From Patescibacteria group bacterium (lineage in GTDB: Bacteria > Patescibacteriota > Dojkabacteria > JAHIVN01), in NCBI GenBank assembly GCA_043816305.1, contig JBDRHZ010000043.1:42322-106321 (forward strand): 64,000 nucleotides of DNA, read 5' to 3'. The notes under the pieces were generated by a model. That model was not told the origin of the DNA. It searched no databases and was given only the letters and a program-made list of their open reading frames with translations. This document shows, one piece after another, positions 4,614-62,752 of the stretch. Positions within the stretch are counted from its first letter, which is position 1. Every line of letters starts with the position of its first letter. The translations under genes and the position numbers were made by a program.

Positions 4614-5465
4614 ATGGAGCAAGATTCAGGAAGAGTAACAACTGAACAGTTATTCAACAACCCTTTAACTGCTCAAAGACTAGTTGGCCTACTTGCTAGT
4701 ATGAGACCAGAGGTCCAACGTATCTCTATCGTGAATCAGGAAACAGGGCAAAGAGAGGAGTTTAACCTAAAATTATCTAATTTGGATCTGAATAAAAGAT
4801 TAGGAGAAGTAATCACCGAGGGTGGTAGACCTTTTGTTGTAAACATCGAAGACCAAGAGTTCATACTAACATATTTCCACTTGAACCAAGATATCGCTCA
4901 ATTTCTGATTGATCATCTTAAATACCCTGGTAGCAGAGAAGCTACATTTCGAATAATTACATTTGCATATCCACCTATAGCTACAGCTCTTAGAGAGAAT
5001 TGCACTCTTGAAGCTCTTAGAGCAAAATTCCCGGCTTGTGACAAACCTGAAATCCTGTTACAAAGAATAAAAAGTCTAATTGTGCATCTCGAATCTCCAT
5101 TTATTCTTGATACAATTGTTGAGGCCGACGGGGGGAACCATGCCGCAAGAAATTTGGACGAAAGAATAATGATAGCTGCAGCTTCTCCAGAAGTAGATCT
5201 ACATTCTTTTTTGACATATACAAAATTATCTGGGAACTCACTACAAAGCACCCTTATTTCTTTCTTGACTGTTCGTGCACTTCTACCGGAAAATAGAGCC
5301 ATTCTGAATCTAAACAAGCAAGCAGATCACTTACAACTCTTACTTGGAAAATCATATACAGAAAGAGTCCCTGCTGAGAAAATATTCATTGCAAGACAAT
5401 TTGACAAGTTTGTAGGGAAACTACTCGGAATAATCCTAACAGAAGGAGCAGAAGCAACCGTATAG
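4614..5465 (+). CDS. hypothetical protein, no recognisable motif (atypical-composition ORFan)
   Basis: Uninterrupted 283-aa ORF with an ATG start. Looks helical, is Lys-poor relative to its neighbours, and has no catalytic or binding motif I can name. Confidence 0.6.
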   Translation: MEQDSGRVTTEQLFNNPLTAQRLVGLLASMRPEVQRISIVNQETGQREEFNLKLSNLDLNKRLGEVITEGGRPFVVNIEDQEFILTYFHLNQDIAQFLIDHLKYPGSREATFRIITFAYPPIATALRENCTLEALRAKFPACDKPEILLQRIKSLIVHLESPFILDTIVEADGGNHAARNLDERIMIAAASPEVDLHSFLTYTKLSGNSLQSTLISFLTVRALLPENRAILNLNKQADHLQLLLGKSYTERVPAEKIFIARQFDKFVGKLLGIILTEGAEATV

Positions 5466-5482
5466 AATCTAGCTCTTCCCAA

Positions 5483-6505
5483 CTACAGAGTATCTTTTAT
5501 CCATTTATAAAGTTTATACCCTAAACCTCTAAACACCTTCACATACTGCGGAAGCATATCTACATGCTCACCACCGAAACCGCTTTTGAAGTAGGAAATT
5601 CCAAATAGGGAATGGTCCTGATCACCCTTTGGTGCTGCTCCCCACTGATCGTAAAAGTTCCTACCGGCTTTTGCCTGCTGCTTAATGATTTCCCACTTTA
5701 GTAAGTATGAGGCCTCTACATCTCGGCCCTTCTTTGTCGCACCTCCATAAAGTTCATACACCTGGTAATCGTTCAAAACCAATAAATATGCCGCAACTAC
5801 TTCTCCTTTATACTCTGCCACGTAAATCTTGATGAGGTCCTCTTTTGACATCTCATCCCAGATTCTCTGAAAATAATCTTTCGGATGAGTCTTGAAGCTT
5901 GTGCTGCCTTTTACTGATTCTATTACTTTGTAGAATTTGTCAACCGCTTCATAGCCTTCGACTTCTTTTGCCACAACTCCCTCTCTCACAGCTTTCCGGA
6001 TATTTCTCCTCCACTTTGATCGAACACTTTGAAATAATTCTTCCTCAGTCCTATCGATTCGGATAACGTCAGTCCAGTTTGGTTGGATAGTTTCTCCGGC
6101 TACCTTCCATCCATCAGTTTCTAATACCATTTTGAAGCTTTCGTTCCAGTTTTCAAATCTCAAGTCATCCTCAGGATCTATCAGTACAAAAGCAATATGC
6201 CTTTCATTTAAGCACTTTGTCAATTCTTGGATAACGTAATCTAAGTACTTGATGTCTCTGACAGAAACTCCCCGGGGAATGTAGGCAAAGCTCGAAAGAC
6301 CAATAAATCGAGTAAACTTTTGAAGAGGGAACTTTCTATAATGAATTGATAATACTGCTACCAAATTTCCCTCCTTGAAAATACCAACCCTTTCTACTCT
6401 CCAGTTGTAAGACTTTACCTCTCCCCAGTTCCAGGATTGAAGCGGCGAACCGCCGAAATGCTGCCAAGCTTGTTTATACTGTTCCTCGTTTAATTTTTTT
6501 ACCAT
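5483..6505 (-). CDS. FemAB-family peptidoglycan bridge aminoacyltransferase (FemX-like)
   Basis: PLQSWNWGEVK, YELYGGATKKG, YDQWGAAP and FKSGFGGE match the FemAB/FemX pattern. Length 340 aa. Confidence 0.85.
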   Translation of the reverse strand: MVKKLNEEQYKQAWQHFGGSPLQSWNWGEVKSYNWRVERVGIFKEGNLVAVLSIHYRKFPLQKFTRFIGLSSFAYIPRGVSVRDIKYLDYVIQELTKCLNERHIAFVLIDPEDDLRFENWNESFKMVLETDGWKVAGETIQPNWTDVIRIDRTEEELFQSVRSKWRRNIRKAVREGVVAKEVEGYEAVDKFYKVIESVKGSTSFKTHPKDYFQRIWDEMSKEDLIKIYVAEYKGEVVAAYLLVLNDYQVYELYGGATKKGRDVEASYLLKWEIIKQQAKAGRNFYDQWGAAPKGDQDHSLFGISYFKSGFGGEHVDMLPQYVKVFRGLGYKLYKWIKDTL

Positions 6506-6556
6506 ACGATTGTTTTACTATTGTAAGACGATTATGTAACTATTGTCGAACAATCG

Positions 6557-9519: not shown

Positions 9520-9672
9520 ATGAAGAAATCGCAAAACCCGAAAACACCCCTCTGCCCAAGATGTTTTAATGTAATTAAAGAGGTAGATGACAAATGCCCA
9601 AGGTGTGGATTTCCACTTTTGTCAGACAACCACATAGTATATGTTGAAGACTTAACACCTAAGAACCCCTAG
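9520..9672 (+). CDS. 50-aa zinc-ribbon mini-protein (below ORF-track cutoff)
   Basis: Hand translation: MKKSQNPKTPLCPRCFNVIKEVDDKCPRCGFPLLSDNHIVYVEDLTPKNP. It has two CPxC knuckles spaced 10 aa apart. Its 3' end overlaps the convergent 9659..11206 ORF by 14 nt. Confidence 0.4.
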   Translation: MKKSQNPKTPLCPRCFNVIKEVDDKCPRCGFPLLSDNHIVYVEDLTPKNP

Positions 9673-11206
9673 TTGCCAAATCAATTGCTTTTAGTGAGGC
9701 ATTTATACCCATCAAAAACAATCCTGCATCATAAGACTCTTCATGACAAGCCATCATCAAAATATGTCTCAACCTTGCCATACTTCGCCATACGTAGTGA
9801 ACATCACTTCTTCCTAATAGTAGAGGGAAAGATTGATGGGATATTTCAAATGCTTCATAAAAGGCCTGTTCTATATTTATAAGCAAAGGTAGAAAAAAGT
9901 CTTCGTCCATTCTACACTCTACCTGATTTCTATCTTCGCGTGGCCTTACATATAAATTCTTATGGGGAAACCTCCATCTAGGAGAACCCTCTTCTACTTT
10001 TATTGAACGTGTTATCAGATCTTTGTAATCTGCAAGCACTTCACGAAATAAGCTTACCGCTTGGGGATAGACCCTCAGGCTAGCAATTAGTATTTCCTGA
10101 GGCAAACCAAGCAGATAAAAAACCGCTCTATTTCTTGCGTCTTTTAATATTCCCATCCTTTCTACCTCTGCAACAAATTCGTGCAGTGGGAGCACCTTCC
10201 CAGCGATATCACGATCCCAACCAAGTTCTCCCTTCATTCCTTTTTGAAAAGTCTTCATCCTACTAGGTATATCTTCTTCCTTCAACATCTCCATAATACT
10301 ACTAACACCATACATCAAACCAGCTTCTGCTAACTTTTGGTATAAGGTTGCAAGAAGCCCAAGACCTGGTCCATTTAGATACATTTGTCTTCTATCCAGA
10401 TCGTTTGATCGCATCAACAAGGCTTGGATAAGTTCTGGATGAAGAATTATCCCTACTGTCCGACTAGATATAGCTGTGTTTTGCAGTAAACCCAGTGCAG
10501 CTTGGGGTAAGAAAATCTGACTGTGATCTCCTGCCTCATATCTAAATCTGAAGGTATTATAGAGATAACCTAAAACAGCCATGGGAACTCCGCCATCACA
10601 GGCAATCCTTATTTCATTTCCCACACCCCAATGCTTGCGGGTAAAAACAAAAAGTTTCGTATCGATCAACTCTCTAAGTAACTGTGCAGATAGAATTTTT
10701 TCTAGATAATCAATATTTCCTAGCAGGGCCTCGTTCTTATTAGTTCTGGGCATAAAGGTAAACCTAGCCCTGCTAGACCAAAATACAAAACTATCCTCGC
10801 CCTCAGGAACAGAGAAAACCCACTGAGCAGATGCTATAAGTGTTGATTTCCCTGATCCAGGCGTACCGCATATAACATCACGCATAAAAGTATCAAGTCC
10901 TTCTGCTTCCGGAACACATAATCTCAACAACGTCCTCCAAGCATCTTGCAATTGTATAGGCAAACCTCTTACACCGCCTCGTGAACAAACAGCTCTATCA
11001 TACAAGGTAGTTATAACCTTAATAGCGGTTGGCCCCAGATTATCTAGAAGGAGCTGCTCCTCTGCAAGGCTTTCAGCCGGCCTCCGAGGTTCGGTTGACA
11101 AAAATTCCCATAAATCCCCATCCTGTCCTTCAACAGAAATACGGCCGGCACCCCCAGGATGTGGAGGTTTTGCATACCTAGCTCCTCCCGCTCTCTCTGT
11201 ACTCAT
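9659..11206 (-). CDS. P-loop NTPase of unknown family with long helical C-terminal region (atypical-composition ORFan)
   Basis: Walker A GTPGSGKST (aa 114-122; nt 10844-10867 encode GTPGSGKS). A possible Walker B lies at IRIACDGG. The N-terminus is Gly/Pro/Arg-rich. My rough hand count is 18 Lys versus 42 Arg, against about 48 Lys and 25 Arg in DnaA. The start ATG overlaps the upstream stop (TAATG at 11204-11208). Confidence 0.7.
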   Translation of the reverse strand: MSTERAGGARYAKPPHPGGAGRISVEGQDGDLWEFLSTEPRRPAESLAEEQLLLDNLGPTAIKVITTLYDRAVCSRGGVRGLPIQLQDAWRTLLRLCVPEAEGLDTFMRDVICGTPGSGKSTLIASAQWVFSVPEGEDSFVFWSSRARFTFMPRTNKNEALLGNIDYLEKILSAQLLRELIDTKLFVFTRKHWGVGNEIRIACDGGVPMAVLGYLYNTFRFRYEAGDHSQIFLPQAALGLLQNTAISSRTVGIILHPELIQALLMRSNDLDRRQMYLNGPGLGLLATLYQKLAEAGLMYGVSSIMEMLKEEDIPSRMKTFQKGMKGELGWDRDIAGKVLPLHEFVAEVERMGILKDARNRAVFYLLGLPQEILIASLRVYPQAVSLFREVLADYKDLITRSIKVEEGSPRWRFPHKNLYVRPREDRNQVECRMDEDFFLPLLINIEQAFYEAFEISHQSFPLLLGRSDVHYVWRSMARLRHILMMACHEESYDAGLFLMGINASLKAIDLATRGS

Positions 11207-11826
11207 TATGCCTTCTGTAATATATAACCCTTTCCTTTCACATTCTTCAACCTGTAGTTAGAAGGCAGTTTCTTTTTCAACCGTTCTATCAGTTTATATG
11301 TTCCCCAAAGTGAAAATTCTCCACGTTGCACAAGATCTGAAATCTCATACAGAGATACCAGATCTTCCTCCCTCTCCTTGAAGTACTCAAAAACTTGGTT
11401 TAACAAAGGCGATGATTCGAGACATTTCCTTGATAGACTCCCAAGATACGCCTGTTCCAAAAGAGGACTAATAGTGTTTCCTTTCGAATCCAATAATCCT
11501 AACAATTGTAGTTTCGATTTTGGGAAATAGGCGAATAAATCAACAAGCTCTTCAAGTACCATTTCTACGGGAGGATATTCCAACACCTCTTTTTTATCCA
11601 AAGACTTGTATGTATCAACAAAGCTACAAAGCCTCTTGATCAGCCCGGGAATACCCCCACTAAGTCTATATATTTCTTCTTCAAACTCACTTGGAATGTT
11701 CCAGCCATTTGTGAGCCGTCTTTGGTCGATAGCATGCTTTGTCTTTCCGAAATCAAAAGGTTTCCTGATTTTTACACATGAGACCGGCCTGACTGATTTG
11801 GGAAAATATCTCTTCGGATGTATCAA
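11206..11826 (-). CDS. winged-helix (OmpR/PhoB-type C-terminal) DNA-binding protein, upstream partner of the NTPase
   Basis: The C-terminus (WGTYKLIERLKKKLPSNYRLKNVKGKGYILQ) matches the Trans_reg_C pattern (xxxIxRLRKKL...I.TVRGxGYxL). An LSGGIPGLIKRL motif resembles the GxP helix of STAND/AAA+ lids. TTG start at 11826, with no ATG in frame upstream. Confidence 0.55.
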   Translation of the reverse strand: MIHPKRYFPKSVRPVSCVKIRKPFDFGKTKHAIDQRRLTNGWNIPSEFEEEIYRLSGGIPGLIKRLCSFVDTYKSLDKKEVLEYPPVEMVLEELVDLFAYFPKSKLQLLGLLDSKGNTISPLLEQAYLGSLSRKCLESSPLLNQVFEYFKEREEDLVSLYEISDLVQRGEFSLWGTYKLIERLKKKLPSNYRLKNVKGKGYILQKA

Positions 11827-12016: not shown

Positions 12017-12541
12017 ATGGAAGAAATTTTGACAGATGAACAAAGAAGAGAAGTTATTCAAACTAGATGTTTTTCACTAATAACCCAGCGTTTCGATTTA
12101 GAATGCAATTGTTTACTTGAAGGAGAATATGCAGCATTCATTGTTCGTTCAAATATAGCAGGCGGAACAGTCTTTGGTCCAGGTAACCAGGTTCGGCCCA
12201 TACATGTAGTATTTACAGACTACTTGCAACACTTTTGTAGCACTCAGGCGATATATCTAAATTTAGATGTTTTGAAGGGCACTATCCTTGAAGCTCTAGA
12301 GGGGATCGAAGCACATCGCATAGAAACCTTCGCTCTATCTTATCCTGACGTAAGAGGCATTCTTCATTACGAGGATTTGCAAAATATCCAGCCAGAAGGA
12401 ATAGATTACGTTCAAACAAACTTTGCTGCTTTAAGCAAACTGTATCAAGTACTTACAGCATCTATTTATGACTTAATAAGAGAGCTGGCAGAGAAACAAG
12501 AATTTAAACATCTTGCAGTTCTTGCCAATAAAGAAGTTTAA
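12017..12541 (+). CDS. hypothetical protein (atypical-composition ORFan), divergent from the wHTH-NTPase operon
   Basis: ORF track 12002..12541. I prefer ATG 12017 (MEEILTDEQRREV). No recognisable motif. Confidence 0.55.
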   Translation: MEEILTDEQRREVIQTRCFSLITQRFDLECNCLLEGEYAAFIVRSNIAGGTVFGPGNQVRPIHVVFTDYLQHFCSTQAIYLNLDVLKGTILEALEGIEAHRIETFALSYPDVRGILHYEDLQNIQPEGIDYVQTNFAALSKLYQVLTASIYDLIRELAEKQEFKHLAVLANKEV

Positions 12542-19362: not shown

Positions 19363-19427
19363 GTGTTTTTTTGGGCAACTTGGGTAGAAAATTGGGTAGT
19401 GTATTTGATGTCTATACTTTATGAGTA

Positions 19428-19456
19428 TGTGGATAACTTGTCAAGAAAGTGGATAA
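19428..19456. promoter_or_regulatory. two DnaA boxes upstream of dnaA
   Basis: TGTGGATAA (19428-19436) is the perfect complement of TTATCCACA. AGTGGATAA (19448-19456) has one mismatch. Confidence 0.6.
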
Positions 19457-19528
19457 TTCAGCTTATAGCTTACAGTTTACCGCATATAAACGTATTTGTT
19501 GTAAAAAGTGGAACAAGTCATACACATC

Positions 19529-19537
19529 TGATATAAC
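19529..19537 (+). promoter_or_regulatory. extended -10-like element TGATATAAC upstream of ORF 19567
   Basis: TGn-TATAAC lies 30 nt upstream of the ATG. Confidence 0.3.
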
Positions 19538-19566
19538 AATCACATATTAAATATTAGAGATTAGAG

Positions 19567-19923
19567 ATGGTCGAGTGTGAACTAGAAGGGCGTGTCCCTA
19601 TCTTTGAAGCCAAACCAGATACTATTTATACCGGGGTTGAAGGAGCACAAGGAAATGTTGCTAGAGTAAGGTACCTAGACTTAGATACTGGAGGATTCTC
19701 TTTTTTGGATGGTTGGGATGTAGATTTGTTTATTAGGTTTAGGGTGGTGCAAGCCCGCTTTCCGGCAGGAAGCCAAGTTGCTCATCAAACCGCTGCTGGG
19801 AGGATGGTGTTTATTGAGAGGGTAGAAGCTGATACTGGAGCGGGAGCAGGAGAGTTTCGCATAATTAGGAATCTTGACTATGTAATAGTTCGACCGGTTA
19901 AACAGGCATCGGTTGCAGTTTGA
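19567..19923 (+). CDS. hypothetical 118-aa protein (atypical-composition ORFan) next to the origin
   Basis: ATG start. Sequence looks beta-rich and is Gly/Arg/Val-rich with only 2 Lys (hand count). No motif recognised. Confidence 0.5.
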   Translation: MVECELEGRVPIFEAKPDTIYTGVEGAQGNVARVRYLDLDTGGFSFLDGWDVDLFIRFRVVQARFPAGSQVAHQTAAGRMVFIERVEADTGAGAGEFRIIRNLDYVIVRPVKQASVAV

Positions 19924-21391: not shown

Positions 21392-22198
21392 TTAGATTGG
21401 AATTGCATTGTGCCAGAGAAGTAGGCAGAATGCTTTCATAGAGTCGGCGATTTTTTGATTCTGAATCAGGTAGGCGAGTGAATTTAAATCTTTGTGAAAA
21501 CCATAAGCGAATATGATTTTGTCATCAAAGCAGAAAAGATCGACGTCTATGTTGCCCGCCAAACTCTTCAAATACCTCGGTTGATACAAACCTTTTAGAT
21601 CAGGATTCTTTCGTAAGAACTGTCTGCATTTTCTTATGTCACTTTTATTCTCTATGAACACAAACCTGTCGCCATGTTTTCTGAGTACAGATTCCTGTCC
21701 GCTTGAGATAAGTTTTCCTGTCTTATCAAACTTGTAATAATTGTCAAAATCGAAATTGCCTCCAAACCCAAGCAAGCCTTCGCTTGAAGTACCAATGATC
21801 TTATCCAAATCCGCGCGAATGTTTGCTCCTTTGAAGACCTTGAAGTCGCTAGCAACATCAAGATTTTCTCCGTTCGAAAGAGAGAGGAGCAGTGGAACTT
21901 CACGCTTCAGCTGCTCAAACTGTTTTTCGGTTTGAAGTTTGTAATCTTGGGCTAATCGGATAAGCTTTCTGGGACTGACCGCTTTGTATTTTATTTTGCT
22001 TTTCGGATCGGTTGATCTGAAAATAAGCTTTTTTGCTTTTAGAGAATCTAGAATTTCGTAAAGCGTTGTACGATTGATTTTGAGTTCTTGAGAAAGAGAA
22101 GTAATTTTTTGGGGAGGATTTGTAAGAATAGTTTTATAAACCAGGTATTCCTCATCTGAGAGTCCGAAGTACTTTGTATCGATCGCAGAATTTGCCAT
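21392..22198 (-). CDS. TrmB-like winged-helix transcriptional regulator
   Basis: LSDEEYLVYKTILTNPPQKITSLSQELKINRTTLYEILDSLKAKKLIFR. Its stop lies 18 nt upstream of the aldehyde dehydrogenase start. Confidence 0.6.
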   Translation of the reverse strand: MANSAIDTKYFGLSDEEYLVYKTILTNPPQKITSLSQELKINRTTLYEILDSLKAKKLIFRSTDPKSKIKYKAVSPRKLIRLAQDYKLQTEKQFEQLKREVPLLLSLSNGENLDVASDFKVFKGANIRADLDKIIGTSSEGLLGFGGNFDFDNYYKFDKTGKLISSGQESVLRKHGDRFVFIENKSDIRKCRQFLRKNPDLKGLYQPRYLKSLAGNIDVDLFCFDDKIIFAYGFHKDLNSLAYLIQNQKIADSMKAFCLLLWHNAIPI

Positions 22199-22424
22199 AG
22201 TAGTATTATATCACGGGTGTAAGTAATGTCAAACAGAACTTACAGCCCTTGTGATTACAAAACCTAATTTACGTTGAATAAGCGATGTAGTAAGATAAGT
22301 AAACAGCATATAGCGGATAGTGGCCAGTGAAATAGTTAAGTAGCATGCTGATGGCTGATAGCGGAGAGCTGATCATAAAAAAGTAAATAACTAATAATAA
22401 CTATAAATAACTGAATTTAATTAT

Positions 22425-23195
22425 ATGTTCACAACAATTCGGAGTCTCAAAATCAGTTACGAAGTTTTGGGAGAGGGCGAACCGATACTTCTGCTCCATG
22501 GCTGGGGCGGAAGTCTGGAAAGCATGAAGGCTTTAGGTTCTAGGCTTAAGGATCAGGGGTTTAAAGTAATTCTCGTTGATTTGCCTGGGTTTGGAAAAAG
22601 TGATAAGCCGAGAGAAGCTTTCTGGCTTGAGGATTATGCGCAGATAATTGAAGAATTTCTCAAACAGCTGGAAATTGAGAATCCGGTTCTTTTTGGGCAT
22701 TCGTTTGGAGGGGCGATATCTATAAAGATTACTACTCGCAAGAATGTGAAAGTGAAGAAGCTAATATTATGTAACAGTTCCGGGATAAGATTGCCAAAGG
22801 AAAAGAAGCAGAAAGTTGTGGGAAAGGTTGCTAAAATAGTCAAAGCTTTCGCTAGAATTCCATTACTTGGCAGGCTTTATCCGTACTTGCGCAAGTTCTT
22901 CTATTATTACATATTGGGTGAACGCGACTACATAGACCACCAGGAAATTGCTGGTACTTTTGAAAAAGTAATAGTAGAAGATCTGACTGAGCAATTAAAC
23001 ATAGTAGATATTCCAACACTGCTTCTGTGGGGTGAGAATGATACTTCGACGCCTCTTGCTCAAGGTGAAACAATGCGACTAAGAATTCAAAATTCAAAAC
23101 TCAAAGTCTATGAAGGGGAGGGGCATGGAATACCGAAATTTAAACCGGAATTGGTGGTGAAAGACATAGTTGAGTTTATCTCCGGTAGCAGGTAG
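22425..23195 (+). CDS. alpha/beta hydrolase
   Basis: HGWGGS oxyanion region, nucleophile elbow GHSFGG, C-terminal GEGHG. Confidence 0.85.
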   Translation: MFTTIRSLKISYEVLGEGEPILLLHGWGGSLESMKALGSRLKDQGFKVILVDLPGFGKSDKPREAFWLEDYAQIIEEFLKQLEIENPVLFGHSFGGAISIKITTRKNVKVKKLILCNSSGIRLPKEKKQKVVGKVAKIVKAFARIPLLGRLYPYLRKFFYYYILGERDYIDHQEIAGTFEKVIVEDLTEQLNIVDIPTLLLWGENDTSTPLAQGETMRLRIQNSKLKVYEGEGHGIPKFKPELVVKDIVEFISGSR

Positions 23196-39336: not shown

Positions 39337-39358
39337 CTTGAGGTTTTGTATAGATTGC

Positions 39359-39367
39359 TGATATAAT
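39359..39367 (+). promoter_or_regulatory. perfect extended -10 element TGATATAAT
   Basis: TGn-TATAAT lies 30 nt upstream of ATG 39397. Confidence 0.4.
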
Positions 39368-39396
39368 CAGGGTTATCTGCCATATTTAGTAAAATA

Positions 39397-39744: not shown

Positions 39745-39777
39745 ATAATTCAGAAACATTAGTGCATAGATTAAGCC

Positions 39778-40332
39778 ATGGAAATCGAAGCTATACATAC
39801 AGTTCTCGAGTTTGACTATATCCCATCGCAGCAAGTTTCGGCTTTAATACCTGATAAAGCAGGTCCCATCCAAGCAAGAACCGGAAATTTCCGTGCCGGT
39901 CCATTTACAGTAGATTTCATTAGAGGAGCTAAGCTTGAAGTAGTGGGGCTTTTGCATTTCAAACTTGATGCTTCACGTTTAAACTATGGTTTTCTTGTTC
40001 GAGATATGGATAGTGCTGGGGAAAGATTGTATTGGCTTTCGAGCAAAGCTCTGTCTTTGGACCAGCTTTATGAAATAGGCGGAGTGCAGGCATTTGACTT
40101 TCGGAGAGATAATGGTGAGCGTTTTCGGGTAGTGGTAAATATAACTGGAGAGAAAGTTGTTGTTAGGCTGGATGAGGTAGGGGAGTATCCTTATCCGGCA
40201 GGCTTTGTCGGCGCAACTGGATTTGAAAAGACGGTAGTTAGCCCAGAAAATATTCGTGATCTTATACACGCTATAGGGTTCTTTATCGAGAGTAATTTTG
40301 ATGTTGCAACCATAAGAGCAGCATTTAGGTAG
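39778..40332 (+). CDS. hypothetical 184-aa protein (ORFan 3 of 3)
   Basis: ATG start. Looks beta-rich. No motif recognised. Confidence 0.55.
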   Translation: MEIEAIHTVLEFDYIPSQQVSALIPDKAGPIQARTGNFRAGPFTVDFIRGAKLEVVGLLHFKLDASRLNYGFLVRDMDSAGERLYWLSSKALSLDQLYEIGGVQAFDFRRDNGERFRVVVNITGEKVVVRLDEVGEYPYPAGFVGATGFEKTVVSPENIRDLIHAIGFFIESNFDVATIRAAFR

Positions 40333-45880: not shown

Positions 45881-46384
45881 CTACTTATTTAATTGAAAAC
45901 TGTCTTTTATCTCTCCTATATCGTCAAAAGCTGCTTGCAGATCCTGTGGTGCGATACCATTCATCTGGGCAAATGTATAAACATATTCTGAGTTCTCGCC
46001 TAATTTTATTTCCATCCCAAGTTCTTCCAGCATAGGATCCCAGTCATTTTGGGAGTAGACAGTTATCGTAAACATAGAAACTTCTCCCTGGGTACTGCTT
46101 GTCAGCTTGAACTGGTAGTATGCCTCGAATTCCAATCCTGCGCCTGGTGTTTTATCAACATTATAACCTTCCCAGCTGTTTGGAAATAAAAGTGAAAAAT
46201 CATGTTCATAATTGGTGTACGGAAGATTGTCTGCTATACTTGTCGAGGTGGAAGTTTCTGTGGTGTCCTCATGCTCAACAGTACTGCTGGAATTTAGTAA
46301 TAAATATGCTGCTATCCCGCCTGCAGAGCAGCAGCACAGAAGTAGTACTACCACAACGATTACGATTATGATGGTTTTGTTCAT
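45881..46384 (-). CDS. membrane-anchored extracytoplasmic protein, unknown function
   Basis: N-terminal anchor IIIVIVVVVLLLCCCSAGGIAAYLLL followed by a Ser/Thr-rich linker. Confidence 0.5.
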   Translation of the reverse strand: MNKTIIIVIVVVVLLLCCCSAGGIAAYLLLNSSSTVEHEDTTETSTSTSIADNLPYTNYEHDFSLLFPNSWEGYNVDKTPGAGLEFEAYYQFKLTSSTQGEVSMFTITVYSQNDWDPMLEELGMEIKLGENSEYVYTFAQMNGIAPQDLQAAFDDIGEIKDSFQLNK

Positions 46385-46444: not shown

Positions 46445-47419
46445 TTAAAAGAGAAGATGTCCTAATCTTTCCAATGCAGTTACTTTGAATACTCTGAGGT
46501 CTGGTGTAAGGGTTTCCTCGGCAAGGACGGTTTGTACAATATGTTGAAGAGCTGCAGGATGACATCTCCTAAGCTCACGGAGAAGAGATTCTGCTTGAGA
46601 ACCCCCAGGGTCTGATGACAGCATTGTGTTGAGAAGTCTTCTTTGGGCATCGACATCATCGGGTGTTCCAAATATTGCAATTTTTATCTCGGTCGTTCCT
46701 CCTACTTTGAGTACATCATCAAGTTCGTATAGTACTGTTGGAGGAACTTCTGTTGTTGCAGGAGGAGTAGACCTTGTTGTTACAACCCTTTGTCGGGGAA
46801 TTTGCTGTCCTGCTGCAATTAAAGCTGCTGATCTCATTGCAAGTACATTTGCCTGAGCATTTTTTATAACTCCAGGAAGATCTAGTTGGATAAGAAGCTC
46901 AATTACAGAAGGTATAGAGTTATCAGCGCAGTACCTTTCAACAACAAGAGCAAGATCTGGTAAATTTAAGGCTTGAAGATTGTCACGAACAGATCCGTTT
47001 TCGGTTGGCTGTGAGAAAATTTGGGTTCGTATTCTGGAAATGAGTGCTAGTTTATCATGAAAAGTAATAAAACTACCTTCTACATAATCATATACGACAG
47101 TTCTAGCTCGTAGCCTTGCATCTGGAATCATACCTTGGATAACTTCTGTAAATCTTCTAGCTGAATATGTGGTGTCTTCAAATTTCCCCGTTTTCAGAAA
47201 TAACTTAACGAGCCCTTCTCCTTGTTCGACTTTATGTTTTCTATCTATCTCGGCTGCTGTTTGTCTGGCAAAGTGTTCTTGAAGTTCCCGTTGTCTAAAC
47301 GAGGGACCGTTTACCGATCTGTTCACAGCCTTTCTTGCCTGAGCTGCATCTAGCTTTGAAGTGTCTTGATCTGTGATAGCGTTATCACCACGTTGTCTTA
47401 GGGATTCATGAATTGACAT
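46445..47419 (-). CDS. hypothetical 324-aa protein (atypical-composition ORFan)
   Basis: Long clean ORF. Arg/Ala/Leu/Thr-rich and looks helical. No motif recognised. Confidence 0.6.
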   Translation of the reverse strand: MSIHESLRQRGDNAITDQDTSKLDAAQARKAVNRSVNGPSFRQRELQEHFARQTAAEIDRKHKVEQGEGLVKLFLKTGKFEDTTYSARRFTEVIQGMIPDARLRARTVVYDYVEGSFITFHDKLALISRIRTQIFSQPTENGSVRDNLQALNLPDLALVVERYCADNSIPSVIELLIQLDLPGVIKNAQANVLAMRSAALIAAGQQIPRQRVVTTRSTPPATTEVPPTVLYELDDVLKVGGTTEIKIAIFGTPDDVDAQRRLLNTMLSSDPGGSQAESLLRELRRCHPAALQHIVQTVLAEETLTPDLRVFKVTALERLGHLLF

Positions 47420-48964: not shown

Positions 48965-49744
48965 TTACGAAAGATCAATTGCCTGTTTCGGGAATAACGT
49001 TACCTGTTTCCCTCGAAATTTGTTTGTAAGTTTGAGGATGCTATGTCCGAAAGAAGAGAAAAGTAACAGGACAAATGGGGGAGTTTTTTTCTTGTTAACA
49101 CTTTCTTCAAGGAAGAGATTAATCAGTTTTTTAAAGATTCTCTTATCATTTAAATATTGATCAAATATCACAAAATCGATATCTGCATTCTTTGCAAAAT
49201 CGCGATCTATTTCAGAATCTCCAAAATAAATGAGCTCTTCTTTTTTAAGTTTTTGAGAAGAAATGAGGTCAAGCAGACACTTTGGATCCGGCTTCTTATA
49301 CCCCTCATCAACGCAGGAAATTATTGTCTCAAAGTAACCTGAAATCCTGGTTTTTTTCAAGAATGCCTCAAGTGTATCCTTACTTCTATTTGTACAAATG
49401 TGCAGGGTTTTGCCTCTATTCTTGAGGAAGTCTAAAATGTCGATAACACCTTCGAATAGAGAAGCTCTATAACTTTCGTCTTTTTGAATTTTCTGGTCCA
49501 GAAGGAGCATTCTTTCAACACTTGTCATCAATCCAAATTCCTTTATCATTCTCCTGTAGTGATCCCGGATAGTAGAACCTGCATATTTATCGTGTAGATC
49601 AATAACATTTTGGGGATTGATATCAGGATCAATTTTCGTGACAACACGAGCAATAGTTTCACTTGAAAAGTCTCTAGCATCAATCAAAGTTTCGTCAAGA
49701 TCAAAGACAAAGTGCTGTTTGTATGTGTCGTTTTGTACTTTCAT
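48965..49744 (-). CDS. HAD-superfamily hydrolase
   Basis: FVFDLDETLID (DxDxT), CTNRSK, GDSEIDRDFA. Confidence 0.75.
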   Translation of the reverse strand: MKVQNDTYKQHFVFDLDETLIDARDFSSETIARVVTKIDPDINPQNVIDLHDKYAGSTIRDHYRRMIKEFGLMTSVERMLLLDQKIQKDESYRASLFEGVIDILDFLKNRGKTLHICTNRSKDTLEAFLKKTRISGYFETIISCVDEGYKKPDPKCLLDLISSQKLKKEELIYFGDSEIDRDFAKNADIDFVIFDQYLNDKRIFKKLINLFLEESVNKKKTPPFVLLLFSSFGHSILKLTNKFRGKQVTLFPKQAIDLS

Positions 49745-52052: not shown

Positions 52053-53075
52053 CTACTTCCACATTCCCTCAATTCTAGCATTGCACTTTCCACATTTCCC
52101 ATCTTTCAAATTCTCAATTCTAGTATATCCCCAGTCCCTTTTTATTAGTAGTTCTTCACACTTTGGGCAGTAAGTACTATGCAGGTCCTGGTCATGAATA
52201 TTACCTGCGTAAACGTATTTCAGTCCCGCGGTTTTTCCTATCCTATAAGCTTCTTTAATCTTCGCTTCTGATGTTGAGGAAATATTACGCATTTTGTAGG
52301 AAGGACTGAAGCGAGTAACGTGCCAAGGAATTGATTGAGAAACTGATACAATAAATTGAGCAATCTGATCTAATTCATGTGGTGAATCATTTTGGCCAGG
52401 TATTATCAAAGTAGTAAGCTCTATCCAAATGCCTTTATTGTATAAAAGCTTGATGCTATCCAAAACGGGCTGTAATTTTGCTTTGCATATTTTAGTATAA
52501 AAGGTGTTACTAAACGACTTGAGATCGATGTTGATAGCGTCTAGGTATGGGGACATTAGTTCAACAGCTTCCTTTGACCCATAGCCATTTGAAACATATA
52601 CGTTTTTAATTCCAGCTTTCTTTGCAAGTTTGGCTGTGTCATATGTGTACTCGCAGAAAATGAAAGGCTCATTGTATGTGTAGGAGATGATTTTTATATT
52701 ATTTTCTATGCAGAAATAGACGATTTCTTTTGGAGATAGTTTATAAAGCGGGGGAACAGGGATAGACTTATCTTTGGTACACTGAGACATCCATGCATTT
52801 TGGCAGAAGTCGCAGCCAAAGTTGCAACCTATTGTTCCCACGGAAAAAACTGAACTTCCAGGTAGAAAGTGAAAAAATGGCTTCTTTTCTATGTCGTCGA
52901 CTTCAGATCCGGAAGTCAGTCCATAAACAAGAGAGTAGAGAATGCCATCCTTGTTCTGCCTCACTCCGCAGATTCCGCATCTATCAGGTACGATTTTACA
53001 GTAGTGATTGCAGGCAGTGCACTCCACGAGGTTATTTTTGAGTTTTTTGAAAAGAAGGGCTTTGTGCATATACAT
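52053..53075 (-). CDS. amrS: AmmeMemoRadiSam system radical SAM enzyme
   Basis: GCNFGCDFCQN is the CxxxCxxC cluster. There are additional N- and C-terminal Cys pairs. The start is either ATG 53075 or 53069. Confidence 0.9.
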   Translation of the reverse strand: MYMHKALLFKKLKNNLVECTACNHYCKIVPDRCGICGVRQNKDGILYSLVYGLTSGSEVDDIEKKPFFHFLPGSSVFSVGTIGCNFGCDFCQNAWMSQCTKDKSIPVPPLYKLSPKEIVYFCIENNIKIISYTYNEPFIFCEYTYDTAKLAKKAGIKNVYVSNGYGSKEAVELMSPYLDAINIDLKSFSNTFYTKICKAKLQPVLDSIKLLYNKGIWIELTTLIIPGQNDSPHELDQIAQFIVSVSQSIPWHVTRFSPSYKMRNISSTSEAKIKEAYRIGKTAGLKYVYAGNIHDQDLHSTYCPKCEELLIKRDWGYTRIENLKDGKCGKCNARIEGMWK

Positions 53076-53076
53076 G

Positions 53077-53129
53077 ATAGTTTAGCATATTTTTCAACTT
53101 TATGAAGGGTAGAAAATATGCTAAACTAT
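53077..53129. promoter_or_regulatory. perfect 17-bp inverted repeat in the divergent promoter region between amrS and ORF 53134
   Basis: ATAGTTTAGCATATTTT (53077-53093) pairs with AAAATATGCTAAACTAT (53113-53129), separated by a 19-nt spacer. Confidence 0.45.
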
Positions 53130-53133
53130 TATT

Positions 53134-53958
53134 ATGGAAAGTCTCTCATTTATAAGAAAGGAAAGAGAAATTCCCTTTTTTAGGGTAGATGGAAGTGGGA
53201 AAATTGAACTAGCATTACCTGAAGACTGTTTAGACATGGCCCCTATATCAGTATCCTTGAAGTTTGTGAAACCTATTAAAACTAGTAAAGATCAACTCCA
53301 GGATTGGGGTTTCATTGGGAAGAAACTTGCTGGTTTCGTGGCAGGACTTTCAGAACGATTCAATGAAGTAACTGATACTTTTGGATTAAGGACTGCAGTA
53401 ATTGATATCCTTAGGAGATTAGGTGTAGAAACAGCCGAGTATAGGGAGAAAAGACTTCCTTGTATAGTCCAGAATGTTACTAATCTGGCCGGCTTACGGG
53501 AAATTACGAAAAGGTATAGGGGAACGATTGATGCTATTGGTAACATGGTAACTTACGAGGCTAGGGTGTTGGTAGATTTCACTACTGGAGCTATAATTGT
53601 TCCAAGAGATCAAGTATATCCTACACAAAAGGCTTCAAGAAATCAAGGAGTTATTGCTTTAAGAATTGCTCTTGGTCAACATTTTGGTTATGCGGGAGAA
53701 TTTACTAAGGGCGAAGTGCATACAGTAATGACTTATCGTATTGAGGATGATTCTAGGGAGTGGCAGTCTGAAATGGTTCGAAGAGTTTTTGATATGTCTA
53801 TTGCATTGTTTAATTTGGGTATAGAAGCGAGAGATTTAGGAAGGAATCAGGTAGCAAGTAGAAGAGTATCTTCTCGACCAAGGTCTTATGTTGTAGATTG
53901 GAATGTTCCAGGCAATACTCCTCACCCTTATACTCCAGGTCCATTTGCCAGAAAATAA
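53134..53958 (+). CDS. hypothetical 274-aa protein (atypical-composition ORFan) with basic Pro-rich tail
   Basis: Clean ORF with an ATG start. C-terminus RRVSSRPRSYVVDWNVPGNTPHPYTPGPFARK. No motif recognised. Confidence 0.55.
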   Translation: MESLSFIRKEREIPFFRVDGSGKIELALPEDCLDMAPISVSLKFVKPIKTSKDQLQDWGFIGKKLAGFVAGLSERFNEVTDTFGLRTAVIDILRRLGVETAEYREKRLPCIVQNVTNLAGLREITKRYRGTIDAIGNMVTYEARVLVDFTTGAIIVPRDQVYPTQKASRNQGVIALRIALGQHFGYAGEFTKGEVHTVMTYRIEDDSREWQSEMVRRVFDMSIALFNLGIEARDLGRNQVASRRVSSRPRSYVVDWNVPGNTPHPYTPGPFARK

Positions 53959-53982: not shown

Positions 53983-54330
53983 TTAGCCTAGTTGCCACTG
54001 AAAGATTCTCAGCTTAATCACATACTTTTCTGATACTTTTACACCTTCTTTTTCCAGCAGCTCCTTCTGTAAATCCTTAGTTACTTCAGGATTTCGTATG
54101 CTTATGTAGCCATTTGAGTTTATCACTCGCCACCAGGGGATATGTACTCCTTCGGGTGTGTTTCTGAGCGCCCAGCCGACCTGACGAGCAGCTCTTGGCG
54201 AGCCGATGAGTGCCGATATGAAGCCGTAAGTAGTTACTTTGCCTTTTGGGATTCGGGAGACTGCCTTGTAAACGCGTGAGTTGAAGGACACGAATGCAAA
54301 CGAATGAACGAATTTAATTAATGCAAACAA
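53983..54330 (-). CDS. MGMT-family DNA-binding protein, alkyltransferase-like (ATL) type lacking the acceptor Cys
   Basis: IPKGKVTTYGFISALIGSPRAARQVGWAL, then IPWWRV where MGMT has PCHRV. Confidence 0.7.
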   Translation of the reverse strand: MFALIKFVHSFAFVSFNSRVYKAVSRIPKGKVTTYGFISALIGSPRAARQVGWALRNTPEGVHIPWWRVINSNGYISIRNPEVTKDLQKELLEKEGVKVSEKYVIKLRIFQWQLG

Positions 54331-59654: not shown

Positions 59655-59659
59655 GGATT

Positions 59660-59668
59660 TGGTATAAT
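59660..59668 (+). promoter_or_regulatory. extended -10 element TGGTATAAT upstream of ORF 59731
   Basis: TGn-TATAAT lies 63 nt upstream of the ATG. The identical 9-mer recurs at 63918-63926. Confidence 0.4.
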
Positions 59669-59730
59669 TGTTACTGAAAATATTGTATCATATTCGTGAT
59701 TTAATATTTAATATAGTCATAACGGTGGAA

Positions 59731-61110
59731 ATGCCAGAGGTAGCAAGAGGACTAAGGCTAAAGGATAGGCTCAAGGGGCTTTTTCATGCCCTTAGATATG
59801 AGATGCAGAGAGTTCCTGAACCAATCGCTACTGAAGTTGGCCTTGAAGAATTCAAAGAAAGGTTGCAGACAAAGGATCTAAAAACCTGGTTGGCTGTTAT
59901 GATAGGAGAGGAAGTGAGCAGAAGGGCTATACAACTAAGAGAAGAATACGAATTTTTGGAGGATGATTATTTCCAATTTCAGTATTTTTTACTCAGAAAT
60001 GCACTTCTAGACAACGAAATGTGTGATGCAGCAAGGCTATTGGGAACTTACTACAGAAGTGGGGAAGATGACCCCCCAGAAATAGCTAGGGTTTCAGCAA
60101 GTTTTATAGAGGGACAACTTGATTTTTTTGTTGGAAATAAGAAATTAGCACAGAGCATTATAGGAGAAATCAAAAGTACACCATCCCAGTTATTCTTTCA
60201 TGGAACTGTATGGCATAGATGGGAAAAGATTAGAGTGGCTGGTTTTCGAACAGAAGAAGGGCTTGCAACAATAACAGCAAATGCCGCCTATGCTCTTCTT
60301 CAGTACGCTTCTCCAACAAGTGAGTCGAGTCTTGCAGATTATGTTGATCTTTTGCCGGATCTAATAGCTAGGGGTGTTATAGCTGACAGAGGAAATTTAG
60401 CTGACAACTTTCTTGCAATGGTAGAGTTGATGTCTGGATCGGATATGATGGCTTTACATGGGGTTTTACTTGTGGTAGACAATAGATTCCCGGGGTTACA
60501 GATAAATCGTGGTATAGAAGGGGGAGATTCTGGGACTATTAGTTATGCATTTTATAGAGGTTCTGCCGATAAAGAGGGGGTGCGGGGGACATTTCGTGGG
60601 CAGAGATACAGGATGACTATTAGTCCAGATATTTTTGCAGCGGTAATTAGGAATACTGTTGGTTTTCAAACCCTTTTAGAAGATATTAGTATGGCTTTTG
60701 ACTCACATGATGCAGAACTTCTCGCAAAGGCTCAGCAAAGGATGGTAGAATATTTTCTTAATTCAAATGAGTTTGATGTGGAGTTTCCTAGAGAGGAAAT
60801 GGATCAAAAGGCAAAAGCCATCTTTGCAAGAAATGTTTTTTTGTCGATCTGTGGTGGGCATTATCAATATGAGGCTGCAAAATTGCTGACACTAGCAGAA
60901 TTTCTAAGAGGGCAGATCTTGGCAGGTACACATACTTATGCAATGATCAAAGATAGAGCATTAAGAATTAAGGATACTGTTGACTCCTGGCTCTATAGTG
61001 ATGTACATTTGCGTCCAGAGTTAAAGACCTATGTTGAAACTGTTGCAAGAATGGTTTACCAAGTTGTTGAGCCATTGGCTGCCTATCCTCAACGCGTTTC
61101 GACTACTTGA
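59731..61110 (+). CDS. hypothetical 459-aa protein (atypical-composition ORFan)
   Basis: Start set at ATG 59731 (MPEVARGLRL), preceded by GGTGGAA. There is only a weak, unproven resemblance of LFFHGTVWHRWEKIRVAGF (aa 154-172) to the HGT-x-GL segment of Tpt1/PARP-like ADP-ribosyl-transferase folds. Confidence 0.6.
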   Translation: MPEVARGLRLKDRLKGLFHALRYEMQRVPEPIATEVGLEEFKERLQTKDLKTWLAVMIGEEVSRRAIQLREEYEFLEDDYFQFQYFLLRNALLDNEMCDAARLLGTYYRSGEDDPPEIARVSASFIEGQLDFFVGNKKLAQSIIGEIKSTPSQLFFHGTVWHRWEKIRVAGFRTEEGLATITANAAYALLQYASPTSESSLADYVDLLPDLIARGVIADRGNLADNFLAMVELMSGSDMMALHGVLLVVDNRFPGLQINRGIEGGDSGTISYAFYRGSADKEGVRGTFRGQRYRMTISPDIFAAVIRNTVGFQTLLEDISMAFDSHDAELLAKAQQRMVEYFLNSNEFDVEFPREEMDQKAKAIFARNVFLSICGGHYQYEAAKLLTLAEFLRGQILAGTHTYAMIKDRALRIKDTVDSWLYSDVHLRPELKTYVETVARMVYQVVEPLAAYPQRVSTT

Positions 61111-61165
61111 TTAGCATTAAGCCGATGTCCAATGTATATATACTTGGGCCAACATTAGTATAAAT

Positions 61166-62131
61166 ATGTCAGAAGTACCATTTGATCCACAAGATAGAAG
61201 GAGAAAGCGAGATACAGTTCCGCTACCACGCGCAGATATACACCCTGTGGCTGTTGAGCATGGGGCTTCCTTATCAGAAGCAAGAGCTTTTAAGGCTCAA
61301 GAGCCACCTGTTCGAGCTGTATTAGGTGATCGTCCAGTATCTGAAGGCGCACCAGTTGATAATGGAGTACCGTCACCTGTCAGGCTTCCCGAATATATGC
61401 GGGTAAATACTTTTTTTGTTAGAGATCCAAGTGGAGGAGTCCTTGAAGTTTCAGATCCACGAGAATTTACTCAGGAGATGCGGCAGGCTTTGAATTCAAC
61501 CAAATTCACGTTTCACTGCAATAGAGACTATTCTGTCAACCATATTGAGTCTGACAAGGCTAGATTCTTTGCTCTGTTTGTTGCAGGTGGAGCAAGGAAG
61601 GACGTGATACTTTTTGTCGACAGATTGCAGAAAATGGGATGGGTTATGTATCGAGGTGCTTCAGATAGCCCTTTTGTGATAGATCGAGATATGAAGGTCA
61701 GGGTAGACTATAGATATGAAACGGCGGATCCCCTTCTGGATCAGGAACTTGTTGGTGCCCACAGATACTTGCCTGAATTTAGGGGGTCGGATATAGGCAT
61801 TTTACCTACTGATCTAACTGAAGATAATTATTTTGCAAGAATTGCCGATGGGCTTTTCTCGTTCCCATATAGGTTAATTGGCTGGGCTGTTTATTCATTT
61901 AAAGCTGGATCCTTGGATTTCCTCGATCCTGCTGAGGCGCATGCAGGCAATATGGGATTTTGTATATGGGATAAACGACCTTACAAAGACTTTATTTCTT
62001 CTTTTCCTATCATAAGATTTAAGTGGTATAGAGTAGGGAATGGTTTACAGAAAGTGCTGCCTTTTAAGAGAATTCTTCTCCCAGGAATTTGTTGGGTTAC
62101 GTTTGAGGATATAGAGAAAAGTGCGAGATAG
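61166..62131 (+). CDS. hypothetical 321-aa protein (atypical-composition ORFan) with Pro/Arg-rich N-terminal region
   Basis: Clean ORF. The first ~75 aa are Pro/Arg/Val-rich and probably disordered. No motif recognised. Confidence 0.6.
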   Translation: MSEVPFDPQDRRRKRDTVPLPRADIHPVAVEHGASLSEARAFKAQEPPVRAVLGDRPVSEGAPVDNGVPSPVRLPEYMRVNTFFVRDPSGGVLEVSDPREFTQEMRQALNSTKFTFHCNRDYSVNHIESDKARFFALFVAGGARKDVILFVDRLQKMGWVMYRGASDSPFVIDRDMKVRVDYRYETADPLLDQELVGAHRYLPEFRGSDIGILPTDLTEDNYFARIADGLFSFPYRLIGWAVYSFKAGSLDFLDPAEAHAGNMGFCIWDKRPYKDFISSFPIIRFKWYRVGNGLQKVLPFKRILLPGICWVTFEDIEKSAR

Positions 62132-62137
62132 GGTATT

Positions 62138-62752
62138 TTACACTCTCTCTGCTATGTGCCGTAATCCCTCGAGCGTTCTCCAGACAGTATCTTGTTCTCT
62201 GCCGTAAAGATTCGCAGCTATAGTTGATATTCTTCTCTGATTTAATCCGGGCAATTGTTGCCTAACCTGGTCAACCGCAGAGAGAAACTGATAAATTGTT
62301 GAATGCCGATGGAGTATTGCCTGTGTTATTGAACCTGTAACATTGGGATTTTCTGAACTGATGAGGAGATTTAACAGAGGTAAATTCTTTGTTATTTCAA
62401 CTATCTTTGAAGTACTCCCGATTGATCGATAATAGGGATTTCCGTCTTGTAATTGATCCGGCCTTGCAACTAACTTCAATATCATATGCGCTGCTGCTGT
62501 ATAAGCACTTTCATCTTGCAGGACTTTGATCGCTGCACGGATTACTTCTGTGGAGAGAGCATCTGCTGAGAAAACTGGAGCTAACATACCTACACTAATA
62601 GTATTTACTCCATCTTCGAGTCGTGCTAAACAGCTCATTAGAGCTCTTTCCTGGGGAGATAGGTTTTCAGGGTTAAGCCTATTTGAAGCCCTTTTTTCAC
62701 GATCTACAACTCTTCCTTTTCTTGCAAGGACTTCCCAGAGTTCTTCAGTCAT
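62138..62752 (-). CDS. hypothetical 204-aa helical protein (atypical-composition ORFan), 10 nt downstream of the YhaM-like gene
   Basis: ATG rc 62750-62752. The stop of the upstream gene is at 62763-62765. Convergent with 61166..62131, with a 6-nt gap. Confidence 0.55.
   Translation of the reverse strand: MTEELWEVLARKGRVVDREKRASNRLNPENLSPQERALMSCLARLEDGVNTISVGMLAPVFSADALSTEVIRAAIKVLQDESAYTAAAHMILKLVARPDQLQDGNPYYRSIGSTSKIVEITKNLPLLNLLISSENPNVTGSITQAILHRHSTIYQFLSAVDQVRQQLPGLNQRRISTIAANLYGREQDTVWRTLEGLRHIAERV

Follow-up and report, generated by a model that had tools for sequence, protein, structure and literature searches.

Lysine-poor, arginine-rich ORFan genes inserted into the housekeeping backbone of a Patescibacteria genome: a possible clade-specific accessory gene pool

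Orphan genes without homologs (ORFans) have classically been viewed as compositionally atypical and often as derived from mobile elements, the usual representatives being short, with a high AT content at every codon position, and hence rich in lysine, asparagine and isoleucine. The A chains of AB toxins, in turn, display a bias toward arginine over lysine. Genomes of the Patescibacteria, or candidate phyla radiation (CPR), are full of unannotatable genes, and the interaction of these bacteria with their partners is largely unknown. Here we describe a 64,000-nucleotide stretch from a Patescibacteria group bacterium (contig JBDRHZ010000043.1 of GenBank assembly GCA_043816305.1, positions 42,322 to 106,321; hereinafter the window), in which about one fifth of the genes constitute a class of lysine-poor, arginine-rich ORFans, twelve and probably thirteen in number, that are interleaved with housekeeping genes. 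A search of the literature uncovered no earlier account of a class like this one in Patescibacteria.

The class resembles classical accessory ORFans in lacking homologs, in its patchy presence in close relatives, in the insertion of its members between backbone genes, in a GC content at third codon positions (GC3) below that of core genes and, probably, in weak codon adaptation. It departs from them in that its members reach 515 amino acids (aa), are GC-richer at codon positions 1 and 2, are poor in lysine and rich in arginine, have a common acidic N-terminus and are bordered by neither mobility genes nor repeats. As in genomic islands of foreign GC content ("alien genes"), the class deviates from the composition of its host and is absent from sister genomes; however, its deviation at silent sites is of the opposite sign, its synonymous codons are host-like, and its genes are scattered as inserts of one to three with no integrase or repeat borders found (no tRNA scan was run). 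Lysine deserts have been reported to be prevalent in bacteria that use pupylation (PMC10665810), and also in components of the ubiquitin system (PMC10169902). Like these and the lysine-poor toxins, the class is depleted in lysine relative to its own proteome while arginine is kept or raised, and this bias is conserved through divergence; unlike in lysine deserts, lysine is depleted about 2.6-fold rather than absent and no secretion signal was found, and we treat the resemblance only as a lead.

All twelve open reading frames (ORFs) that an earlier note on this DNA had singled out as unlike their neighbors are present in the sequence, and the ATG starts chosen for them are reasonable, two of the ORFs being extendable upstream to TTG codons (at 12002 and 59668). 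The fraction K/(K+R) separates these twelve without overlap from the 48 other long ORFs of the window (0.15-0.40 versus 0.56-1.0; Mann-Whitney p = 1e-7, a value inflated by the ORFs having been chosen partly on this feature). In pooled composition the class has 8.2 versus 4.2 % arginine, 3.6 versus 9.5 % lysine and 8.1 versus 5.4 % alanine; accordingly, the description of the class as rich in arginine and alanine and poor in lysine stands, as do the hand counts behind it (about 18 lysines and 42 arginines in the 515-aa ORF, about 48 and 25 in DnaA), whereas the glycine enrichment also claimed does not (p = 0.35). GC3, which played no part in the selection, is 0.245-0.325 in the class and 0.313-0.478 in the native genes (p = 2e-7), and codons ending in C are scarcer in the class for nearly every amino acid. 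The label "GC-elevated" that had been given to the class is thus misleading: total GC is slightly raised (median 0.419 versus 0.396, p = 0.03), but the rise is limited to codon positions 1 and 2 while position 3 is lower. Arginine is, as had been noted, encoded mostly by AGA or AGG, the share being 73 % as in native genes, and synonymous choice is host-like with a further shift toward A/T-ending codons. The reported acidic start is likewise real, with Glu at residue 2 or 3 in 11 of 13 class members and in none of 36 native genes with an ATG start (p = 3e-9). The shift between lysine and arginine codons is far stronger than that in the analogous pair of Asn (AAY) and Ser (AGY) codons. A halophile-type adaptation was rejected, since Asp and Glu are not raised in the class. 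A Pfam match, again not a selection feature, was obtained for none of the 13 class members versus 20 of the 27 other ORFs tested (Fisher p = 1.3e-5), and no class member matched NCBIfam at the curated cutoff. Since three unannotated proteins outside the class (11206-11826, 29993-31897 and 45881-46384) are lysine-rich or without arginine excess, the class is not defined by missing annotation alone.

Scoring with a codon model fitted to the native genes put the annotated frame first of six in all 13 class ORFs, whose codon periodicity is strong and protein-like (G1 = 0.35), and no competing long ORF was found in the other frames of the class loci. Origins as shadow ORFs, through an alternative code or as frameshift derivatives were rejected based on the superiority of the annotated frame and the lack of cross-frame similarity in tblastx and blastn comparisons. 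The tight coupling to native-looking genes that had been pointed out at two places is also real: the stop codon of the gene at 11206-11826 overlaps the start codon of the 515-aa ORF, c9659 (9659-11206), in a TAATG at 11204-11208 that is kept in a relative as well, and the 10-nucleotide gap at 62753-62762 agrees with the coordinates of the genes beside it. Of the extended -10 elements proposed for several members, a TG-TATAAT upstream of the ORF at 59731 could be verified, whereas promoter-like sites overall do not exceed chance (44 versus 42 expected from shuffled sequences). Every protein queried, nine of the candidates among them, was found in two NCBI assemblies as "hypothetical protein", and the junction linking the HD/OB gene with c62138 (62138-62752) and c61166 (61166-62131) recurs in an independent (Logan) assembly of a read set, in contig L017 (L-numbers denote related metagenome contigs, about 100 loci having been fetched); together these two observations exclude a chimeric contig. 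On such sequence criteria the twelve ORFs, and probably the thirteenth, are real protein-coding genes, and the best frame and the translational coupling bear out the earlier judgment that they form a genuine, distinct class and not junk.

We then examined the gene order in relatives. A metagenome scan with the AddA-like protein of the window returned 80 loci, of which L075, L018, L019, L020 and L083 are closest, at 60-68 % identity. The backbone order in relatives is HD/OB, AddA, a 175-aa gene, rhomboid, Adk, (MGMT), radical SAM, Memo, a 188-aa and a 121-aa gene, PrmC and a 167-aa gene, and the backbone proteins are 52-70 % identical to those of the five contigs, save for the poorly conserved gene of about 175 aa. 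The presence/absence check in sister genomes that the earlier note had called for revealed six class members to be absent from collinear relatives, with c9659 being conserved. Thus c4614 (4614-5465) is missing in L016, where PcrA abuts FemAB; c62138, c61166 and c59731 (59731-61110) form an insertion between the HD/OB and AddA genes, which lie 11-29 nucleotides apart in L075 and L019; c53134 (53134-53958) is an insertion that separates, in opposite orientation to both, the MGMT-domain gene from the radical-SAM gene, two genes that are 5 nucleotides apart in L020; and the slot of c46445 (46445-47419) is taken in L075 by a 516-nucleotide spacer with no similarity to it. A seventh member, c12017 (12017-12541), occupies the place of the missing 5' part of the gene coupled to c9659, and we infer that its insertion caused the truncation of that gene. 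Most of the inserted class genes are oriented against both neighbors. Relatives carry other, non-homologous and unannotatable ORFs in different slots that are likewise lysine-poor and arginine-rich and start with ME, MQE or MSE (L075 18043-19293, 416 aa; L019 8356-10590, 744 aa; L100 2126-2632, 168 aa). Neither target-site duplications nor terminal or convincing flanking repeats were found at the five insertion sites examined, and no integrase or transposase occurs among the neighbors scanned (tRNA genes were not part of the scan). Native-type genes vary as well: a HAD hydrolase gene (48965-49744, -) is absent from the collinear L075, and the MGMT-domain gene (53983-54330, -) is absent from L075 and L019 and present in L020; as both vary yet are lysine-rich like the natives, variable genes also exist outside the class.

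The single class member with orthologs, c9659 (minus strand, 515 aa, K/(K+R) 0.30), is a P-loop protein and occupies the downstream position in a conserved module of two genes. Its Walker A motif, GTPGSGKS, had been recognized correctly, and the protein resembles P-loop NTPases in this motif (GxPxSGK[ST]), whose lysine is invariant in seven family members; it is unlike them in remaining below threshold in Pfam, NCBIfam and PDB searches, in that a Walker B motif was not identified and in its lysine-rich partner. The profile matches are generic P-loop fragments at E >= 0.017 in these three collections, and an AF2 model based on a two-sequence alignment was unusable (mean pLDDT 32). The partner gene (11206-11826, -, 206 aa, K/(K+R) 0.66) led us to 11 homologs besides the window copy (P0014-P0025), nine of which are 332-354 aa long with an N-terminal degenerate P-loop (GENVCLCSAPKMGDN), the two shorter ones, P0018 (303 aa) and P0022 (176 aa), both being from L099; in distant homologs an OmpR-type winged-helix domain (PF00486) is present. 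The window copy lacks about 122 N-terminal residues, with alignments to homologs beginning at residue 89-154, mostly at about 120-135, and may represent either a shortened functional form or a remnant. Among the closer relatives, an overlapping gene of 393-585 aa without a Pfam match invariably comes after the partner. The contig L016 (34.5 % GC) is collinear with the window across this region, with P0012 as the c9659 ortholog, an overlapping lysine-rich partner (49 % identical), two FemAB genes (53-55 %) and PcrA (60-63 %). Further c9659 orthologs occur on L098, L099, L100, L101 and L104, and every ortholog, P0012 included, is the most lysine-poor gene of its locus.

Seven c9659-family sequences could be aligned at 13-27 % identity, with the Walker A lysine as essentially the sole invariant residue. 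Across the seven genomes, whose loci range from 27 to 39 % GC, K/(K+R) is 0.30-0.50 in the c9659 family versus 0.58-0.74 in the partner, and GC3 is lower in the c9659-family gene than in the partner in six of the seven. Because the two genes share an operon and a history, the difference in lysine cannot be put down to how strongly they are expressed or when they were acquired; and because the c9659 family has kept its composition through the replacement of most of its residues, at 27 % GC too, this composition is a maintained state and not a relic. As a separate observation, P0011, a 398-aa database protein with at least six tandem repeats of about 55-60 aa (…APFGPGAGRIRARFADGPLWRFRRSEPRRR…), matches residues 15-45 in the Gly/Pro/Arg-rich N-terminus of c9659 (49 % over 31 aa), the E value of 1.5e-8 being probably inflated by the repeats. 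In addition, L099 (27 % GC) carries a second, shorter copy of the two-gene module at 9854-11546, consisting of P0022 and a 391-aa gene, and this downstream gene, with K/(K+R) 0.67, is not lysine-poor.

Homology searches place the class among the ORFans. An exhaustive HMMER search with c9659 against 1.84 billion representatives recovered none outside its own clade, with one true homolog, P0012, at 30 % identity; a word-index search of 5.8 billion protein clusters with c59731 recovered only itself, and no metagenome, viral or PDB relative of this protein was found. PDB searches with the class proteins tested, and scans of genome collections and metagenomes with class proteins as queries, were equally negative, and no relative of any class protein was detected across the loci fetched, the orthologs of c9659 other than P0012 having come to light through the partner. 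The scan of the class against PHROG yielded no match at E < 0.04 (best E = 0.047), and that against PADLOC only a match of c9659 to mad8 confined to the P-loop region (E = 0.023; c62138 and three small members were not scanned). IMG/VR, GenBank phages and plasmids (PLSDB) yielded no relative of the class proteins tested, in searches that are insensitive for fast-evolving proteins and against CPR phages that are barely sampled. Hidden paralogy within the class, which had been suggested as worth testing, did not materialize: all-vs-all BLASTP and hhalign comparisons revealed no paralogous family, the best hhalign probability being 6.7 % and the best BLASTP pair c4614 and c59731 (pairwise E = 5e-4 over 77 aa). 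When DnaA was used to scan the species representatives of GTDB no close relative was found, the best match being 39 % identical; with the clade so barely sampled, the ORFan status of the class members is to be expected.

In light of these observations we propose that the class represents a clade-specific accessory gene pool of a poorly sampled CPR clade with an arginine-for-lysine composition that is selected, a reading in which we have about even confidence. Class genes would have entered the housekeeping backbone as inserts of one to three genes, often in opposite orientation and with their own promoter, and relatives would hold different, non-homologous genes of like composition in other slots. 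The signature, comprising arginine for lysine, raised GC at codon positions 1 and 2, the lowest GC3 and C3, and Glu at residue 2 or 3, would be a maintained property at the protein level, with selection appearing to favor arginine over lysine. Given that the arginine codons are host-like in their AGA/AGG share, the silent sites have equilibrated while arginine has not drifted to lysine, which is one transition away. The low GC3 might stem from weak codon selection or from non-core genes not having been enriched in GC by recombination, and the Glu-rich start may be what remains when an A-rich, unstructured 5' end of the coding region must avoid lysine codons. Low expression as the sole cause of the composition can be rejected, as DnaA, PcrA, the AddA-like protein and PrmC are of low abundance yet lysine-rich, and the co-transcribed partner of c9659 is lysine-rich too. 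The products are probably low-abundance factors, cytoplasmic or delivered by contact, for interaction with a partner, a host or phages. For the lineage-specific effector repertoire that the earlier note had named as an alternative, no secretion signal was found: 11 of the 13 proteins look soluble and without a signal peptide, the two others being small proteins with membrane segments; a hydrophobicity scan revealed no Sec-type signal peptide, and no consistent C-terminal signal was seen by eye in the class proteins.

Several points weigh against this proposal. The dinucleotide signature at codon boundaries departs from that of the natives by 0.108, versus 0.051 +/- 0.012 in random native subsets, a departure that exceeds all 200 such subsets and fits a foreign origin, and the rise of alanine, proline and arginine together with the fall of lysine, asparagine, isoleucine and tyrosine is also what would be expected from a donor of about 55 % GC. 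The argument for maintenance rests on one family, with one of 13 members having orthologs. The sensitive homology searches cover two members (c9659 and c59731), the remaining ones having been compared with curated libraries of hidden Markov models (HMMs) and, in a few cases, with PDB, phage or plasmid collections, and the negative results from Pfam, NCBIfam, PHROG, PADLOC and PDB leave room for remote relatives. The bimodality was seen within the 64 kb of the window. Furthermore, HrcA repressors and a Ham1-like protein of relatives are lysine-poor and arginine-rich too (L046 5854-6597, L049 7347-8111, L051 14295-15020 and L018 418-1041), and low K/(K+R) alone is hence not diagnostic of the class.

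Among the other explanations, we see a modest possibility that the genes are cargo of unsampled phages or mobile elements of the clade, comparable to "morons", which were left singly after integration or illegitimate recombination and carry the composition of the element. Such an origin would agree with ORFans devoid of family matches, with a GC3 below the host level, a common trait of mobile DNA, with promoters of their own, opposite orientation and patchy presence, with the insertion that coincides with the truncation of a host gene, and with the deviant dinucleotide signature. Yet integrases, tRNA-linked sites, target-site duplications and terminal repeats were all missing from the five sites examined (no tRNA scan was run), PHROG offers nothing at E < 0.04, the admittedly insensitive searches of IMG/VR, GenBank phages and plasmids, with CPR phages barely sampled, were negative, and the lysine-poor composition would be left unexplained. 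The main idea of the earlier note was horizontal acquisition from a GC-richer donor, for instance the partner of an episymbiont, with ameliorated silent sites and a lagging amino acid composition. Its premise of acquisition agrees with most members being insertions relative to sister genomes, and a donor-derived composition is in line with GARP-type residues being up and FYMINK-type ones down roughly as for a source of about 55 % GC, with the raised GC at codon positions 1 and 2 and with a dinucleotide signature unlike that of the natives. However, a donor of this kind predicts an intermediate GC3 whereas the observed one is lower than in the natives; the exhaustive search uncovered no out-of-clade homolog of the 515-aa ORF, and the word-index and metagenome searches none at all of c59731; most genes of ordinary bacteria match Pfam, as opposed to none of the 13; the arginine codons are host-like; the shift from lysine to arginine much exceeds that between Asn (AAY) and Ser (AGY); and the orthologs of c9659, diverged to 13-27 % identity, have retained the composition, also where the genome has 27 % GC. 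We therefore retain the insertion but consider the donor-derived composition unlikely.

Drawing on the analogy with lysine deserts, one might also imagine a lysine-avoiding effector or counter-defense repertoire of episymbiotic CPR bacteria, in which the residue or its codon is shunned. The proteins could be delivered into, and act within, a host cell whose Pup- or ubiquitin-like conjugation targets lysines, or they could be made while tRNA-Lys is being destroyed in a conflict over phage defense; we regard this as quite unlikely. Birth de novo from non-coding DNA of the lineage, with a composition reflecting unevolved sequence, would account for the lack of homologs and the presence in a single lineage, and random sequence of this base composition is calculated to give a K/(K+R) of about 0.4-0.5, nearer to the class than to the natives. 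It is nevertheless very improbable: reading frames of 174-515 codons are too long to arise by chance at 35-39 % GC, the empty slots in sister genomes consist of 0-29 nucleotides or of the dissimilar 516-nucleotide spacer and offer no precursor, codon periodicity is strong and protein-like with the annotated frame best, no similarity to native genes exists in alternative frames or in antisense, and the c9659 family is old. That the ORFs are unreal, be it as spurious frames, opposite-strand shadows or products of a chimeric assembly, is suggested by the lack of homologs, but is effectively refuted by the frame being best in all 13 with no long competitor elsewhere, by a family with an invariant Walker A lysine and a conserved start/stop overlap, and by identical proteins in two NCBI assemblies and a junction recovered from independent reads.

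As to the individual members, c4614 (plus strand, 283 aa, MEQD start; K 4.2 %, R 6.4 %, GC3 0.28) has no match in Pfam, NCBIfam, PHROG, PADLOC, PDB or the plasmid collection. The plus-strand c12017 (174 aa, MEEI start) is located upstream of the truncated partner gene at a distance of 190 nucleotides, in divergent orientation, and has no family match. The most extreme composition, K/(K+R) 0.15, belongs to c19567 (19567-19923, +, 118 aa, MVEC start), which is located between dnaA and an aldehyde dehydrogenase gene in an orientation opposite to both. The likely thirteenth member (29672-29950, +, 92 aa, K 2.2 %, R 6.5 %, GC3 0.31) starts with GTG (VAEE) and is predicted to contain one transmembrane-like segment at residues 16-41; its annotated frame is the best one and it has no Pfam match. 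Three members form a cluster at 39049-40332 that is opposed to both flanking genes, which encode a baeRF-like protein and an M16 peptidase: c39049 (39049-39336, +, 95 aa, MDSE start) is followed by c39397 (39397-39744, +, 115 aa, MELL start, R 11.3 %), with transmembrane-like segments, and by c39778 (39778-40332, +, 184 aa, MEIE start). For c46445 (minus strand, 324 aa, MSIH start), between PrmC and the conserved 167-aa gene, no matches were obtained. The L075 spacer in the corresponding place (22062-22577) is gene-free within a compact genome of 31 % GC and contains G/C-rich complementary stretches (GGGGTCTGGGGAG … CTCCCCAGGACC), which might form a structured RNA.

The plus-strand c53134 (274 aa, MESL start) ends in an Arg/Pro-rich tail; its candidacy as a uracil phosphoribosyltransferase was discarded (E = 7e-4, 19 bits versus a cutoff of 114, no PDB support). 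Directly upstream of both this gene and the radical-SAM gene lies an inverted repeat (53074-53093 and 53113-53132; 20 nucleotides, 95 % complementary), whose arms provide c53134 and the displaced radical-SAM gene, cut off by the insert from the operon it once belonged to, with near-identical upstream sequences and probably function as twin divergent promoters or as a shared operator. The 459-aa c59731 (plus strand, MPEV start) is open from the TTG at 59668, where the TG-TATAAT element upstream of it ends. Its AF2 model, from a single sequence, was too poor to use (mean pLDDT 45), and the likeness of its motif FFHGTVWHRWEKIRVAGF to the first motif of ADP-ribosyltransferases or Tpt1-type proteins, which was noticed by eye, was dismissed for want of support from HMMs, PDB or the model. 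No Shine-Dalgarno motifs were seen upstream of the starts of either class or native genes in the window, and AT-rich -10-like hexamers often stand about 10-30 nucleotides before the ATG in both, a pattern that suggests leaderless or Shine-Dalgarno-independent initiation in this organism. The 321-aa c61166 (plus strand, MSEV start) has a Pro/Arg-rich N-terminal region, and c62138 (minus strand, 204 aa, MTEE start) follows the HD/OB gene, with which it shares a strand, after 10 nucleotides; the C-terminus of the latter resembles a helix-turn-helix by eye, with a weak match to the male-killing Wmk family (E = 0.16). Just past the right end of the window, in L017 (643-2139, -), is a 498-aa ORF of intermediate composition (K/(K+R) 0.48, GC3 0.35), with an MSGE start, long hydrophobic stretches and no significant Pfam match, in view of which the class may be less clearly delimited in the genome as a whole.

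The window as a whole averages 39.3 % GC and contains no GC island. The neighbors of the class are housekeeping genes, namely those for PcrA, two FemAB proteins, MerR-Nudix, dNK, histidine phosphatase, DnaA, aldehyde dehydrogenase, Mur ligase, ADP-forming acetyl-CoA synthetase, a baeRF-like protein, M16 peptidase, POR, PrmC, HAD hydrolase, Memo, radical SAM, an MGMT domain, adenylate kinase, rhomboid, an AddA-like helicase-nuclease and an HD/OB protein. The spacer between dnaA and c19567 (19363-19566) harbors a consensus DnaA box (TGTGGATAA, 19429-19437) within a 15-nucleotide inverted repeat, and the cumulative GC skew reaches its minimum near 17 kb, turning close to this spacer; based on the box and the nearby turn, the window probably spans the replication origin.

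A discrete class that can be recognized by composition would furnish a homology-free handle on the accessory gene pool of genomes such as these. The class matches that part of the genome which is inserted and specific to the lineage. It also raises the question of why lysine would be selected against. Were the donor history the cause after all, the class would identify the type of donor. If lysine avoidance were at work, the M-(x)-E start and the exchange of arginine for lysine would mark an unrecognized gene pool that can be found by composition without homology; and should lysine-directed tagging or an attack on tRNA-Lys be the cause, the class would point to the molecular interface of these bacteria with their host or phages.

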